Shown: positions 108 to 4,724, counted from the stretch's first letter. The stretch is 4,859 nt of DNA from a virus (IMGVR_UViG_2651869785_000017), one strand, 5' to 3'. The notes: generated from the sequence alone by a model not told the origin. Translations and numbers: made by a program.

Positions 108-119
108 GTCCATAAGAAA

Positions 120-138
120 GCCCCTCCGGAGAGGGGCT
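120..138 (-). terminator. Candidate terminator hairpin (minus-strand orientation)
   Basis: Perfect 7-bp stem GCCCCTC (120-126) / GAGGGGC (131-137) with tetraloop CGGA. On the minus strand it is followed by UUUCUUAUGG, a weak U tract. Back-to-back with the 79-107 terminator. Confidence 0.35.
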
Positions 139-349
139 GGAGAGTGGCGCTATGTGCCATTGCATGGTGCCGGGTGCCTCCCGGTGAGTTCAGTATCAGC
201 ACCTGAACCCGCACAGAAAGGATAAGGGTCGGTGACAAAACACCAGTTGCTGATTGCCCCTCCGCACAGGGGGATTCACCATGCCAGTTTCTTTTAACAA
301 ACTCCCCGCAAACCAGACAACAGTCAACCGCCTGAATTGTGAGACATTT

Positions 350-388: not shown

Positions 389-465
389 TGGCGCGTTCTA
401 CTGTATTCGAACCAGTGACCGATTGCTTAGAAGGCAATTGCTCTGTCCGGCTGAGCTAACAACGC
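389..465 (-). tRNA. tRNA-Arg (anticodon UCU), argO-like, slightly imperfect
   Basis: Hand-folded cloverleaf from the reverse complement: acceptor GCGTTGT/AGAACGC (6 of 7 pairs, G6:G67 mismatch), D stem GCTC/GAGC with GG in the D loop, anticodon stem ATTGC/GCAAT, loop CTTCTAA (anticodon TCT), T arm ACTGG-TTCGAAT-ACAGT (G53:A61 mismatch), discriminator G, CCA encoded. Not run through tRNAscan-SE. Confidence 0.65.
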
Positions 466-481
466 AGGATACAGATAATGA

Positions 482-555
482 ACCGCCTTCGGGGACCCGA
501 ACTCCGCGCAACCAGCTTCGAAGGCTGGCGCTCTTTCCTGATGAGCTAATGGCGG
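482..555 (-). tRNA. tRNA-Arg-like (anticodon UCG as folded by hand), argN-like; possibly degenerate
   Basis: Reverse complement folds as acceptor CCGCCAT/AAGGCGG (6 of 7, A6:A67 mismatch), D stem GCTC/GAGC with loop ATCAGGAAA, anticodon stem CCAGC/GCTGG (perfect), loop CTTCGAA (anticodon TCG), T arm CGGAG-TTCGGGT-CCCCG (one mismatch). The 3' end is followed by TCA, not an encoded CCA. It sits 7 nt after the tRNA-Ile gene. Confidence 0.5.
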
Positions 556-562
556 TATGTAA

Positions 563-638
563 TGGTGGCCCTTGCTGGATTTGAACCAGCGACCTGGCGA
601 TTATGAGTCGCTCGCTCTCACCACTGAGCTAAAGGGCC
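563..638 (-). tRNA. tRNA-Ile (anticodon CAU, lysidine type; ileX/ileZ-like), formally Met/Ile ambiguous
   Basis: Reverse complement GGCCCTTTAGCTCAGTGGTGAGAGCGAGCGACTCATAATCGCCAGGTCGCTGGTTCAAATCCAGCAAGGGCCACCA: acceptor 7 of 7, D stem GCTC/GAGC, anticodon loop CTCATAA, T arm GCTGG-TTCAAAT-CCAGC, CCA encoded. Closely resembles my recollection of E. coli ileX (tRNA-Ile2) and not elongator tRNA-Met. Confidence 0.85.
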
Positions 639-666: not shown

Positions 667-1380
667 TCAATAATCAAGCCCTTGCCTGGATACATATCTG
701 TCTGGCGGGAAGCCATAATAGCGGTGAAATACAGAAATAAAGTAGGACCTGCTTGAATAACCGCATTTTTCTGCTATAGCCTGTCCATATCCATGCCGGG
801 AACATAACATATTTACAGCAACACGCATCCGCTCTTCCAGCAACAAGCGACTGAACATGCCCCCTTCATTTTTCAGTTTTGTCTTTAACAAACTCTCACT
901 CATATGCAACTGTAGAGCAATCGCACCAAGCGTCCAGCTTGCTGATATATCTGTCTGAATTATCGCCCTGACTTTGGCACTTATGCTGGATAAACATCCA
1001 CTTAAAAACAATGACATCCGTTCATCTGTTTCAAACAGAGACAGGCAGGCCATCATAAGAAACATATCCGTGGCCTCTCCGGAAAATCCCTGGCTGGTAA
1101 TTAAAGCCGCAGCCAACGCAGGATTGTTGGGTTCCAGCAACAGGTAAAGCGGAATGTCAGTCAGACGAGTCCTCGTCAGCTTATGCTGACTTTCCAGATA
1201 TTGACTTACGACGGATTCGCTTATATCGACAATTTTAACTTTGCCATAATGCATAAGGAAAAGCTCCCTGATGCATTTGGTGGCCAGAACAACTGAGCCT
1301 GGCTTAAGTGACAACGTATCCTTTTCAAGAAAAATATTAATTGGGGAGCAAACCATGATAACTGAACAGACAACAGCCAT
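667..1380 (-). CDS. AraC/XylS-family transcriptional regulator (237 aa as drawn)
   Basis: The C-terminal ~100 aa (approx. 667-970) carry the AraC-type double HTH signature (WTLGAIALQLHMSESLLKTKLK...RMRVAVNMLCSRHGYGQAIAEKCGYSSRSYFISVFHRYYGFPPDRY). The N-terminal part is short for the family. Start is ambiguous: ATG at 1380 has no clear SD, whereas the in-frame ATG at 1254 (MHYGKV..., 195 aa) has a GGGAG SD 9 nt upstream. Confidence 0.85.
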   Translation of the reverse strand: MAVVCSVIMVCSPINIFLEKDTLSLKPGSVVLATKCIRELFLMHYGKVKIVDISESVVSQYLESQHKLTRTRLTDIPLYLLLEPNNPALAAALITSQGFSGEATDMFLMMACLSLFETDERMSLFLSGCLSSISAKVRAIIQTDISASWTLGAIALQLHMSESLLKTKLKNEGGMFSRLLLEERMRVAVNMLCSRHGYGQAIAEKCGYSSRSYFISVFHRYYGFPPDRYVSRQGLDY

Positions 1381-1502: not shown

Positions 1503-1528
1503 AATAAAAAGCCTTCAGGACTGAAGGC
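1503..1528 (-). terminator. Rho-independent terminator after the small winged-helix ORF
   Basis: Hairpin GCCTTCAG..CTGAAGGC (1511-1528), overlapping the ORF stop codon, followed on the minus strand by UUUUUAUU (plus-strand 1503-1510). Confidence 0.5.
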
Positions 1529-1712
1529 GTCTGTAACAACCGCACTGATAGTCTGCCAGACCCGCCATAACAAGCTGGGTCAGTATTAACTGGCAGCGTT
1601 CGCGTGAAAGGTAAGTATTCTGCGCAATCTCCCCGACTGTCGCCGGTTCGGTAACGCTTAATTCATCAAACACAACTCTGGCGGTTTCTGTCATATCCTG
1701 CTGTTTCAGCAT
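1515..1712 (-). CDS. Small hypothetical protein (65 aa), possible winged-helix DNA-binding protein (PapI/FaeA-like pattern)
   Basis: Intact ORF with its own downstream terminator and a weak AAGGG SD-like element about 9 nt upstream of the ATG. The segment GEIAQNTYLSRERCQLILTQLVMAGL resembles the recognition-helix region of small wHTH regulators. Composition matches the phage backbone, not the AT-rich cassette. Homology is from memory only. Confidence 0.45.
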   Translation of the reverse strand: MLKQQDMTETARVVFDELSVTEPATVGEIAQNTYLSRERCQLILTQLVMAGLADYQCGCYRRLQS

Positions 1713-1836: not shown

Positions 1837-1861
1837 AAAAAACCCGCTCAGTGGCGGGTTT
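1837..1861 (-). terminator. Terminator-like hairpin in the divergent intergenic region (stronger on the minus strand)
   Basis: Stem CCCGC (1843-1847) / GCGGG (1854-1858) with loop TCAGTG, flanked by A6 on the left and TTT on the right. The minus-strand transcript gets hairpin plus U6; the plus-strand transcript gets hairpin plus UUUAAGUUGUG. Confidence 0.45.
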
Positions 1862-1931
1862 AAGTTGTGTGGCGAAGTAACCACTCTTAACACAATACAA
1901 TACTTTTTGCGTACGCGTTAGTGTTTTGATA

Positions 1932-1966
1932 GAATTTTCAGCCACATAAAAATTCATTCTTATAAT
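1932..1966 (+). promoter_or_regulatory. Candidate promoter/operator region for the cassette
   Basis: Consensus TATAAT at 1961-1966, 12 bp upstream of the gene-1 ATG, but with no good -35 and no strong SD. A 7-bp inverted repeat GAATTTT (1932-1938) / AAAATTC (1949-1955) with a 10-bp spacer sits where a -35 would be, suggesting an operator or activator-dependent promoter. Confidence 0.25.
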
Positions 1967-1978
1967 TCGGGATATATA

Positions 1979-3154
1979 ATGGATATAACTTGTTTAGAAT
2001 GTGGCAATGTTCTTGACGACCCAACTGTAGCTTGCGATAAATGCGGTGCCACGCCTCATGTTGTAGTGCTGGGCAAACAATCGTACTTTCCTATTGGTGC
2101 TGTAACAGCAAATCTTGAAAAAAATGATTCAAGAGCATTTGATTATCGATTAGGTGAAGTTTGGGATCTAAAAAATGAAGTCACATCTGAATTCATAACC
2201 AGAATTGAGAAAAAATTTAGCCGAAAAAACAAATTTCATAACTTCCTAGACTCAGATCACAACCCTTCATCCATTCCTACGATCCTAAAAAAATACATTA
2301 ATAAAAATAATGAATTCATTGATTTATCTAGAGCTATAATAGAGAAGCTTAAACATAATGCTAATAACGAATCGAGAGTTGCCCAACTTCAGGGGGGGAG
2401 CGTTGTTTTCATCCACTATAAGTCTACCGAACCAGAGGATTTGGGGAAACTTCTAATCGTAATGGTTGATAAACAAAGCGCCTATGACTTTGATTCGGAT
2501 AAGTTGACCCCAACAAGATTAAATCCAATTAATACCGATGCCTTACGGCAGGCTGCGATGTTCGATTTAACTTTATTCGAAGCCAGTTATCCAGAAAACA
2601 AGGGTGACTCATATGTACATTTCTTGCAAGGTAAATCTAAAAGCGATTTTTTCAAAGACTCATTAGGTTGCCGACATGATTCGGACAATAAAAGAAGCAT
2701 TCAGCAATTATTCAGTGCTATAGATATTTTTGCTAGTAAAAACTCACTCGGTCGTGTACTGCGTGATACTATTGACAATGAAGTTAAATCCTTACTGGAA
2801 AAAAAATCAAAAGATAAACACGGAAATAAGTCCGTTAAGATAGAGGATATTTCAAAAATAATTGACTCATGCCTGACTGATTCACACAAATGTAAGGGAA
2901 CGTTTGTCGATTTTGTTAATCTTAATGGTTTCCAGATTGACCCTCAATTTGAACCAACTCCTAAAGCAGCTGAAAGCGCGCTTACAATTGAAGTGGCAGA
3001 TAACGACAATAATTTTAAGTTGAAAATAATGCGTGGAGCTATTGGAGACGAAAAGTCAAATAAGCCTGTAATTCTCACTGACAACAAATGCGAAATTGTG
3101 ATAAAATTGAGTCAGGCAAATTATGATGAACTCAAAAGATATAGAGACAGCTAA
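1979..3154 (+). CDS. Zn-ribbon + NdpA/YejK-like (NA37 family) nucleoid-associated-protein homolog, 391 aa; cassette gene 1
   Basis: Hand-verified translation. Residues 5-22 form a CxxC-x10-CxxC zinc ribbon (CLECGNVLDDPTVACDKC). Residues ~138-228 (GGSVVFIHYKS...LLIVMVDKQ...DLTLFEASYPENKGDSYVHFLQGKSKSDFFKDSLG) align by eye with the conserved core of E. coli YejK (GGFVLFCHY...[23 protein letters not shown]). Strongly AT-rich and K/N/I-rich, unlike the flanking DNA. Confidence 0.8.
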   Translation: MDITCLECGNVLDDPTVACDKCGATPHVVVLGKQSYFPIGAVTANLEKNDSRAFDYRLGEVWDLKNEVTSEFITRIEKKFSRKNKFHNFLDSDHNPSSIPTILKKYINKNNEFIDLSRAIIEKLKHNANNESRVAQLQGGSVVFIHYKSTEPEDLGKLLIVMVDKQSAYDFDSDKLTPTRLNPINTDALRQAAMFDLTLFEASYPENKGDSYVHFLQGKSKSDFFKDSLGCRHDSDNKRSIQQLFSAIDIFASKNSLGRVLRDTIDNEVKSLLEKKSKDKHGNKSVKIEDISKIIDSCLTDSHKCKGTFVDFVNLNGFQIDPQFEPTPKAAESALTIEVADNDNNFKLKIMRGAIGDEKSNKPVILTDNKCEIVIKLSQANYDELKRYRDS

Positions 3155-3156
3155 TA

Positions 3157-4371
3157 ATGACAATTGCTGATGACTTATCAAGATTAGCGCAGATTATTAA
3201 CGGAGCCTCAAGCAGAGTTGAGGGCTACTACACTGTCATAAGTCTTGAAGAAAGCATTGTTATTGTAAATAGTTCTGAAATAATTAGACTGTTACAATCT
3301 ATAGGTTATAAAAAGGCAACAACCTGCATCGAAAATAATGAAATTTGGCTAGATCGCCAAGCTTCATCTTGGGATGACGCTATAATTTATGAGAATGTTG
3401 AGTCTTTTTGGTCTAGAGTAAACACCCAAAACGCTCTTCCGAAAAATTATATCATCGGAACGCCGTTAATACTCCCTACTTCTAAGAATGAAAGCATCGA
3501 AAAAATCCATATTTTCTTTATGTGGAAAGATATCCTTTCATTAATTGCTGATCATCATAACAGTGACTGCTCTGTCTTATTTTTCACCAATGAAGACAAA
3601 AGTTATACAGTCGAACTCACGCATTTTTTACAATATAGCGAGATTAATCGCTTATCGAACTCGTCTCTTAAATATGAAATTATAAAGGAGCTTCTCGACA
3701 CAATAAAAATCAATGATTTACACAAAAGCGAGCGCAAGCTCGTTATACGCTCAGCCATAAACGAAGTATTTAAAGCAAATGGTACGTTCAATTTCTTTGA
3801 CTTGCTTAACTCTACTGAACTCGTCAGGAAAAAATATGATGAACTATATGAGATTTACACAAAGAGGTTTTCTGTAAATAAAATTCTTAACGAACTCGAT
3901 GAGAAAAATCTTGAGTTCACGAGTAAAATTAACGAATTCATATCATCTAATCAGACAAAAGCATTGACTATTCCCGGTGCATTAATAGCTGCTGGTGGCT
4001 TAGTGAAGGCTAATGAAACAACCGAAGCAATATTGATTATCGCAGGACTTTGGATGATAAAAAAAGTCAATTACATTTCTATTGAGATATTCAATGAAAC
4101 ATTCGACAACTTACGTTCTCGAGTGGAGTCCGCTTTCGATAAGTATTTAAAGTTTGAAGAAAATAAAGAAATCAAAGATAATGCAGATAGTATTAAGAGT
4201 AGCATTACAGGTTTGATTGATAAAGCTAAAAAAAGGATGAGAACTGTTAAATATCTCGCATCAGCCATGTTTTATGGAGGCCTTATTTACGTTGGATATA
4301 AACAGTTCCCAGTCTTTTTTGAAAAATCGGCAGTAAATCTATTTTATTTTTTATGCCATACTATAAGCTAA
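3157..4371 (+). CDS. Hypothetical membrane-anchored protein, 404 aa; cassette gene 2
   Basis: ATG lies 2 nt after the gene-1 stop (TAATAATG), so likely translationally coupled. A ~270-aa N-terminal soluble region has no recognisable catalytic motif (no Walker A, HExxH or obvious nuclease motif). Hydrophobic segments at approx. 3964-4020 (ALTIPGALIAAGGLV), 4030-4070 (AILIIAGLWMI) and 4255-4300 (YLASAMFYGGLIYVGY). Same AT-rich composition as gene 1. Confidence 0.75.
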   Translation: MTIADDLSRLAQIINGASSRVEGYYTVISLEESIVIVNSSEIIRLLQSIGYKKATTCIENNEIWLDRQASSWDDAIIYENVESFWSRVNTQNALPKNYIIGTPLILPTSKNESIEKIHIFFMWKDILSLIADHHNSDCSVLFFTNEDKSYTVELTHFLQYSEINRLSNSSLKYEIIKELLDTIKINDLHKSERKLVIRSAINEVFKANGTFNFFDLLNSTELVRKKYDELYEIYTKRFSVNKILNELDEKNLEFTSKINEFISSNQTKALTIPGALIAAGGLVKANETTEAILIIAGLWMIKKVNYISIEIFNETFDNLRSRVESAFDKYLKFEENKEIKDNADSIKSSITGLIDKAKKRMRTVKYLASAMFYGGLIYVGYKQFPVFFEKSAVNLFYFLCHTIS

Positions 4372-4707
4372 CATTGCTAAACAGCCGTCAACAAACCCCA
4401 TTGCAGTTTGCAGTTCCTTCCTAATTGTGCCATCAGAGCATTTTCTCTTCTTCGCAATAGTACGTAATGAGATACCGATAACAAAGTGGGCGATGATGAG
4501 CTCATATTCCTCTGGTTTATACCTTCTCAACCGAGCCACACAACTGTCTATCATGATGCCTTCGTCATCATCACACTGAATCCGTGACTTTTTGCCATGA
4601 GGTAAAAGTCCCTTGAAACCAGCCGCTATCGGCTGCCAGTCCACTCCGCTATTGTCTGAAGCAGCCCAAGCTCCCCAACGATCCATTACTTCATACATAT
4701 CACGCAT
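4351..4707 (-). CDS. Phage antitermination protein Q (Phage_antitermQ family, QuuD-like), 118 aa
   Basis: Translation MRDMYEVMDRWGAWAASDNSGVDWQPIAAGFKGLLPHGKKSRIQCDDDEG...CSDGTIRKEL matches my recollection of the DLP12 QuuD/Q-family pattern (MRD...ERWGAWAA...IAAGFKGL...SR.QC.DDD...CSDG). ATG at 4707 has a GGAG SD 7 nt upstream; the ORF track's extra 5 codons start at an in-frame TTG at 4722. Confidence 0.85.
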   Translation of the reverse strand: MRDMYEVMDRWGAWAASDNSGVDWQPIAAGFKGLLPHGKKSRIQCDDDEGIMIDSCVARLRRYKPEEYELIIAHFVIGISLRTIAKKRKCSDGTIRKELQTAMGFVDGCLAMLAYSMA

Positions 4708-4724
4708 CAACTTTCTCCACAAAA

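Follow-up and report, generated by a model that had tools for sequence, protein, structure and literature searches.

A DS-1 defense cassette between the antiterminator gene Q and its predicted late promoter in a lambdoid Escherichia coli prophage

Introduction

Where does late transcription of a lambdoid prophage begin when the DNA right behind its antiterminator gene Q is occupied by genes of the opposite strand? This question is raised by a viral stretch of 4,859 nucleotides (nt) (IMGVR_UViG_2651869785_000017), which was analyzed over its full length and is referred to here as the window. The window represents a late-regulatory region from a lambdoid Escherichia coli prophage, and a prophage in E. 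coli G1/2 matches it at 99.98% identity. All of its phage genes are located on the minus strand, and the two genes of a cassette on the plus strand. The textbook layout, with the late promoter PR' within ~100 base pairs (bp) downstream of Q, is not found in this region, as 2466 bp separate the Q stop from the predicted PR' start. The genes and boundaries in question are the following (numbers beginning with L denote comparison loci):

4351-4707, minus strand: Q antiterminator gene, 118 amino acids (aa) from the ATG at 4707, as annotated by PGAP in L002 (G1/2)
1979-3154, plus strand: cassette gene 1, DS-1 protein 1, YejK/NA37-like nucleoid-associated (NF053868, 451 bits vs 330)
3157-4371, plus strand: cassette gene 2, DS-1 protein 2 (NF053869, 375 bits vs 315)
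4351-4371, both strands: overlap of the 3' ends of Q and gene 2 (21 bp, 7 codons)
1922-1978, plus strand: left end of the cargo segment with the upstream region of the cassette, 24.5% G+C
4369-4372: right junction of the cargo segment, where the likeness to Q alleles with a CLAML motif stops and the match to the relative L084 begins (at 4372)

We consider it likely that Q and its cognate PR'/Q-binding site are split in the window by a cargo, the defense system DS-1, which is transcribed towards Q, that PR' is located to the left of this cargo, and that Q acts in trans. In the lysogen, PR' would then yield only an RNA of ~49 nt, and the cassette, with a promoter of its own, would be transcribed the other way. 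Once the prophage is induced, Q would act in trans at the PR' site, making the distance from the Q gene irrelevant, and the Q-modified polymerase would pass the hairpin and later terminators and transcribe the regulator, tRNA and lysis genes without ever entering the cassette. With Q acting in trans, the Q-PR' distance would concern the layout rather than the mechanism, and the 2.4-kb shift of PR' from the Q gene should cost nothing.

Location of the predicted late promoter

The predicted promoter belongs to a conserved block on the minus strand (1925-1837), which combines, in the direction of transcription, a palindrome, a -10 hexamer, the predicted start, a leader and a hairpin terminator. 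Anatomy and homology of this block are described below as observed, while promoter activity, Q binding and termination are predictions from the sequence. The block is composed of:

1905-1920, minus strand: candidate Q-binding element TAACGCGTACGCAAAA, at -35 to -20, holding the palindrome GCGTACGC at 1909-1916
1892-1897, minus strand: predicted -10 hexamer of PR', TATTGT, at the same position as TATCAT before the mapped Sakai start (PMC7547250)
1885, minus strand: predicted PR' start, the A of TTAAG-A-GTGG, from homology to position 1546 of L008
1869-1884, minus strand: conserved leader GTGGTTACTTCGCCAC, +2 to +17, near-invariant over all Q classes, with a potential 5-bp hairpin
1837-1860, minus strand: intrinsic terminator and candidate tR', +26 to +49, with the stem AACCCGC/GCGGGTT (1860-1841) and a T-run (1842-1837)

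The start position was transferred from the Shiga toxin 2 (Stx2) prophage Sp5 of E. coli Sakai. In this prophage, the PR' start mapped by differential RNA sequencing (dRNA-seq) and the 3' end mapped by Term-seq are 258 nt apart, and the PR' transcript, StxS, is cut by RNase E at GU|AUU at +173 (PMC7547250). We fixed the start in the Sp5 sequence (L008) from these internal constraints (258 nt, +173 GU|AUU), using no coordinate offset between versions of the Sakai record; all three facts are satisfied by a single assignment, in which transcription starts at 1546, the 3' end falls on position 1803 as the last T of its T-run, and GTATT occupies 1717-1721. Positions 1832-1892 of the window align with 1539-1599 of L008 (80.6% over 62 nt, E 1e-8), and position 1546 falls on window position 1885. 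In Sp5, the leader and the hairpin directly follow the local Q gene, Q933W. The promoter for the Q type of the window is not located in the study of 'pR' regions' by Zhang et al. 2018 (PMC6266700).

With its 7-bp G+C-rich stem and T6, the hairpin at 1837-1860 is the first predicted terminator after the predicted start; further terminator-like sites were found by the scan at 1803-1782, 1528-1511, 374-357 and 138-119. The terminated PR' RNA is predicted to measure ~49 nt and folds as two hairpins (z = -3.35). Just downstream of Q, neither a copy of the promoter/leader block nor the Q-specific motif was found, the latter being single-copy in the window.

The initial annotation of the window had left two options, namely a late start inside gene 2 with antisense transcription through the whole cassette, or a PR' displaced to the far side of the cassette. 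The second agrees with the position of the block, which is homologous to a mapped PR' start and whose upstream half co-varies with the Q allele, while no support was obtained for the first. It had further been anticipated that cassette and late genes would be mutually antagonistic either way. As PR' transcripts are predicted to start left of the cassette and to run away from it, no clash of late transcription with the cassette is expected. The hairpin had been described as tR'-like (1837-1861); a minus-strand terminator in the PR' leader is indeed what we find, though it would act on a transcript begun ~25 nt upstream and not on one that has crossed the cassette.

Co-variation of the upstream half of the block with the Q allele

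Q belongs to Pfam family PF06530 (159.8 bits vs a cut-off of 26, E 3e-47) and shows a distant match to the Q21 structures 6P18/6JNX (E 1e-3). An upstream TTG start at 4722 extends the open reading frame (ORF; 4351-4722/4707), but is probably not the start used. A block from ~1925 through the hairpin is common to five E. coli loci that have related Q genes and different cargo. For a broader comparison, genomes were scanned at one genome per species, which gave 33 loci with a window-type Q from ~20 Enterobacterales genera (Q identity 71-91%). The block was present in 28/33 of these loci, 630-2660 bp downstream of Q and on the Q strand. In those 28, the interval between Q and the block contained one to three ORFs of the opposite strand, abutting or overlapping the Q stop; same-strand ORFs were restricted to at most one, short and overlapping the end of Q, in two loci. 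The order Q, convergent variable cargo, PR' is the usual one for this Q family.

Within the block, all aligned loci have TAnnnT at -12 to -7, and most of them have a hairpin with a T-run at the terminator position. The element TAACGCGTACGCAAAA is near-invariant in company with a window-type Q (28/30 such loci aligned from the genome scan), and among the viral contigs it accompanies all window-type cargo types but one (TAATGC in L107/L117). Scanning viral contigs for the leader added 120 more loci, 77 of them non-identical and with a recognizable Q. In every one of the latter (77/77), the segment from -35 to -20 tracks the Q allele class, at distances from 10 bp to 3 kb from Q:

Window-type Q: motif TAACGCGTACGC, 1.1-3.0 kb from Q, and 43 bp in L084
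L006-type Q: motif GCGCGGTCCGC, 34-45 bp or 0.9-2.3 kb from Q
Q933W-type Q: motif TTTACGATCGTAAA, 22 bp or 0.5-0.8 kb from Q
L001-type Q: motif TGTTATAACA or TGGAATTCCA, 799 bp or 10 bp from Q

The candidate Q-binding elements are palindromic in all four classes (GCGTACGC, GCGGTCCGC, TTTACGATCGTAAA and TGTTATAACA/TGGAATTCCA). The phage 21 element is a direct repeat, and the contrast suggests that Q proteins of these subfamilies bind in another geometry.

A modular exchange is visible in L001, which follows the window at 98% identity over 96-1897 and resumes its likeness at 4665. Consequently, the swapped unit comprises the Q-binding element, the cargo and the C-terminal, DNA-binding (helix-turn-helix) half of Q, and what both loci have in common is the leader and the N-terminal half of Q. 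Co-variation and modular swap together are the pattern that would be expected of a Q-binding element with its cognate Q. In L005 and L006, the block is located ~150 bp upstream of the holin gene and represents the sole conserved element between cargo and holin. A further locus, L003 (phiSTEC1575-Stx2k), encodes a Q of another, non-PF06530 family (250 aa) and contains two copies of the terminator hairpin (3656-3687 and ~2980-3010) bracketing a 426-bp ORF. The likeness of L003 to the window ends exactly at the hairpin (window 1860), so that the promoter half appears to have been replaced along with Q.

The cargo and its junctions

Both cassette genes pass their NCBIfam equivalog cut-offs, and by this measure the cassette is DS-1, a type II PANGU-like system. 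DS-1 is presented as an experimentally validated anti-phage system in the DefensePredictor work (PMC13092281), and protection against phages is reported for DS-1/PANGU (PMC13092281; bioRxiv 10.64898/2026.04.06.716658). The product of gene 1 matches Pfam NA37 (84.5 bits vs a cut-off of 24.6) and has an N-terminal CxxC...CxxC motif. Gene 2 had no Pfam or PADLOC match, and PADLOC remained blank for the whole cassette; its product is clearly hydrophobic at residues 291-309 and less so around 269-285 and 370-385, and is probably a membrane effector. A candidate cassette promoter, TTGATA-16-AAAAAT, was listed by the promoter scan at 1926-1953, back to back with PR'.

As the initial annotation had stated, Q and gene 2 converge with an overlap of 21 bp, or 7 codons, and immediately behind Q the opposite strand is coding. 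The ORF coordinates (Q stop, complement of 4351-4353; gene 2 stop, 4369-4371) and the NCBI annotation of G1/2 (L002; 9641-10855 on plus vs 10835-11191 on minus) agree on this overlap. The origin of the overlapping DNA turned out to be the reverse of what had been assumed, namely that the tail of gene 2 derives from Q and that the junction lies at 4340-4350. Q alleles agree through G-F-x-D/E-G-x-L-x-M-L and then diverge fully, with tails of 0-12 residues beyond the conserved core that vary with the cargo type. In the window, the core reaches GCAATGTTA, encoding Ala-Met-Leu113 (4369-4377), and the allele alignment reveals no shared sequence past it; GCAATGTTA aligns with GCAATGTTG of L001 and L022, and nothing is alignable afterwards.

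The same boundary emerges from L084, an insert-free relative whose Q is 62% identical to that of the window. L084 matches window positions 4372-4449 and then, 33 bp later, positions 1861-1921, and only 5 nt separate its Q stop from CTAACGCGCACGC. The comparison with insert-free relatives, which the initial annotation had recommended for finding PR', thereby shows Q and the block 5 nt apart in L084. The junction is located at 4369-4372, and the earlier position was ~20-30 bp too far left. A right junction at 4380-4393, derived from the ends of blastn matches to L004, L005 and L007, was dropped in favor of 4369-4372 after the alignments of the CLAML alleles and L084. At the left end, the likeness to L084 ends at 1921 and that to loci with other cargo at 1927-1952. 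Taken together, the cargo segment is estimated to span ~1922-4371 (2.45 kb). The G+C content is 34-36% for the cassette and 46.5% for the Q core, and this contrast agrees with a seam at the end of the core.

From these alignments, 4351-4368 is cassette-side DNA, encoding the residues LCHTIS of gene 2 and, on the other strand, AYSMA and the stop of Q. The sole part of gene 2 in Q-core sequence is its stop codon at 4369-4371, since this TAA is the complement of the Leu113 codon TTA of Q. Each gene thus takes its stop codon from the other module. In the proposed sequence of events, the cargo displaced all DNA past the last conserved Q codon, and Q gained five codons of cargo DNA. The overlap is an ordinary recombination seam and would involve no clash with late transcription; tail-to-tail overlaps of Q measuring 4-25 bp occur in about one quarter of the related loci. 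The NF053869 profile stops at residue 378/404 of gene 2, and the closest homologue, in L033 (42% identity), diverges past GGLIY. The last ~26 residues of gene 2 (379-404) may also be a non-conserved run-on.

DS-1 is one of many cargos at this position. At least 14 unrelated modules occupy the interval between Q and PR' (L027 and L032; L016; L006; L031; L005; L007, L010, L017, L004). Occupants include a TIR protein, an NA37 and RelA/SpoT pair (type I PANGU-like), a D12 methyltransferase pair, PDC-M53, and a pair with a sub-threshold KwaB-like match (Kiwa-like). Several two-gene modules of the slot are matched by neither Pfam nor PADLOC; they are candidate defense systems of an undescribed kind. 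The slot itself is well supported by these sequence comparisons. Rather speculatively, we extend this to prophages of the Q21/Q933W family at large. In these, the interval from Q to PR' would be a dedicated exchange slot for defense systems oriented towards Q, with the last conserved Q codon and the palindrome as flanks; the cargo would be insulated from late transcription, and an antisense brake on Q may act where a bidirectional terminator is missing. Keyword searches of the literature, which were not exhaustive, returned no description of a hot spot or slot between Q and PR'.

Alternative explanations

Several observations weigh against the placement of PR' at 1885. The -35 region is poor (CTAACG, 3/6), and the generic promoter scan left the PR' candidate unlisted; the start for the Q allele of the window was carried over by homology. 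No conserved -10-like pause element can be assigned with confidence in the leader: TACTTC (+7 to +12) is without the final T of TACATT in Sp5, and AAGAGT (-3 to +3) is a guess. The mapped tR' of Sp5 differs from the homologous first hairpin, and the abundant RNA extends to the second terminator, at +258. The window matches only the first ~54 nt of the Sp5 PR' transcript, which falls short of an StxS-type small RNA (sRNA). Finally, TTAAG (-5 to -1; 1886-1890) changes partly in step with CTTAA (+22 to +26; 1860-1864), and if this pairing occurs in RNA, the start would be located further upstream. The support for it is divided, with 5 compensatory (TTAGG/CCTAA and ATAAG/CTTAT among the changes) and 7 mismatched cases. 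The inner hairpin (+2 to +17) varies little: G-C gives way to A-U twice, and the fourth pair is broken in 13 sequences, where a shifted register is possible. No Rfam family was found for the leader; a sub-threshold STnc130 match on the opposite strand (1747-1869, 28 bits vs 55) was taken as chance.

These points give some room to a reading in which the block is the terminator of the early-right operon together with a structured element, and the true late promoter is found further downstream, for example before the lysis genes. The weak -35 and the failure of the generic scan at this site fit such a reading, as do the outer pairing, which needs RNA begun upstream, and the strong terminator at the end of the block, which would also halt transcripts coming from Q. 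We regard it as improbable, since dRNA-seq detects a primary 5' end at the homologous Sp5 position, a plain terminator offers no reason for an upstream segment that co-varies with the DNA-binding half of Q, and in L005/L006 the ~150 bp to the holin gene hold no other element conserved across loci. Still less credible is the textbook placement, with PR' and qut inside the 3' end of gene 2 (~4250-4350, minus strand), antisense transcription through the cassette and the hairpin at 1837-1861 as its tR'. Sp5 and the insert-free relatives do start PR' 10-45 bp after Q, and chance promoter-like matches exist on the minus strand of the AT-rich cassette (e.g. 4081-4054). However, the DNA on the cargo side of the 4369 junction differs for each cargo type, whereas Q alleles that are 82-100% identical keep the motif on the far side, and the window has no second copy of the leader or the Q-specific motif. 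Moreover, the promoter-like matches are at the level of shuffled sequence (15 found vs 11.8 +/- 3.2 expected); with minus-strand hits in the cassette at chance level, the generic promoter scan was not used as evidence either way.

Two further views concern the overlap itself. That it might be an artefact of assembly or annotation can practically be dismissed: the cassette including the junction is found at >=99% identity in 106/5426 complete E. coli genomes, all independently assembled, and the identical junction is present in the viral contigs L068 and L112, with both reading frames intact. A regulatory role of the overlap, which is compatible with a PR' left of the cargo and Q acting in trans, deserves more attention, but we would not count on it. 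Antisense control of Q is known from lambda paQ. In a similar manner, cassette transcripts running antisense into Q might damp leaky Q expression in the lysogen, and N-modified early transcripts crossing DS-1 after induction might lower the defense. Most relatives outside the overlap group have a short gap between Q and cargo with a bidirectional terminator hairpin, and in ten of them (L004, L006, L007, L010, L014, L017, L021, L027, L036 and L040) a G+C-rich hairpin with a flanking A-run and T-run stands just after the Q stop. The window and a few other overlap loci are without this hairpin. In the window, the scan found no intrinsic terminator between Q and gene 2 on either strand, and on the plus strand none for ~2 kb beyond the gene 2 stop. 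Without a terminator at the seam, mutual interference of cassette and Q would be conceivable, and the arrangement has stayed unchanged in the 106 genomes. Antisense transcription across the cassette would come only from read-through of the early operon past Q. On the other hand, the idea is inferential throughout, antisense RNA without translation is typically targeted by Rho and may end quickly, and overlaps in several cargo types are possibly neutral by-products of the recombination site.

Neighboring genes in the window

The remaining genes of the window are located on the minus strand on both sides of Q and the cargo:

4725 onwards, minus strand: end of a DUF968 gene, at the right edge of the window
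1515-1712, minus strand: small winged-helix ORF of 65 aa, between PR' and the tRNAs
667-1380, minus strand: AraC-family regulator
389-638, minus strand: tRNA-Met(CAT)/Ile2-type, tRNA-Arg(TCG) and tRNA-Arg(TCT)

The winged-helix ORF, the regulator and the tRNA trio (389-1712) are downstream of PR' and would be part of the late transcription unit. In G1/2, the region to the left of the window holds an esterase gene followed by the holin, lysozyme and spanin genes, and ordinary early genes are found to the right. The AraC-family regulator has its best NCBIfam likeness to YdeO and GadX, far under their cut-offs; in other prophages, a DNA methyltransferase takes the position of the regulator and the winged-helix ORF between PR' and the tRNAs. 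A full-length match to the Rfam sRNA STnc100 (108-313, minus strand, 143 bits vs a gathering score of 47) is located downstream of the tRNA trio, the place of the stx genes in Stx phages.

Comparison with known systems

The locus illustrates that opposite-strand genes right after Q imply neither a lost late promoter nor late transcription through the cargo. It also provides a predicted PR' position and a candidate palindrome for a Q subfamily found frequently in enterobacterial prophages, including those with Shiga toxin, where the expression of toxin and lysis genes is governed by promoter strength and Q specificity. Furthermore, the slot offers a predictable place to seek new anti-phage systems, and it shows that a regulator gene and its DNA target can remain coupled in function through repeated replacement of the cargo between them.

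The closest known counterpart is the Q933W module of Sp5/933W. The two Q proteins are PF06530 members with 46% identity and the same N-terminal half, homology around the promoter extends from -7 to +54 and takes in the first hairpin, both loci have the tRNA trio downstream, and in both modules a constitutive PR' would be ended early until Q is made. In contrast, the Sp5 start is located 22 nt after the Q stop, compared with 2466 nt and a defense cassette in the window; the Q-specific motif is TTTACGATCGTAAA there and GCGTACGC here, and the 3' part of StxS with the second terminator at +258 is without a counterpart in the window. In phage 21, the Q element is a direct repeat of TGAGCA between -35 and -10 (PMC6606751; 6P18, 6JNX). 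Q21 belongs to the same fold family with a helix-turn-helix like that of sigma region 4 and acts on polymerase paused near the promoter, and the position of the element between -35 and -10 is alike. The sequence likeness of the proteins is distant (E 1e-3), however, and the window-type elements are palindromic, with binding predicted.

The cassette resembles DS-1/type II PANGU in having a YejK-like gene followed by a gene with C-terminal hydrophobic segments, but the accessible parts of the DS-1/PANGU papers do not place the system in a slot between Q and PR'. APSE phages carry variable toxin cassettes near the region downstream of Q. The Q of the aphid-symbiont phage APSE-3 (EU794053) is 50% identical to the window Q.

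With prophage hot spots and morons (P2/P4, stx, bor, APSE), the slot has in common a fixed place, interchangeable cargo, an own promoter and low G+C content. Hot spots with defense cargo in P2/P4 prophages have reportedly been described by Rousset et al. in 2022. The difference concerns the position relative to the late promoter: morons of the stx type are located downstream of PR' and are co-transcribed with the late genes, whereas the cargo in the window is located upstream of the predicted PR' and, in this slot, is nearly always oriented towards Q.

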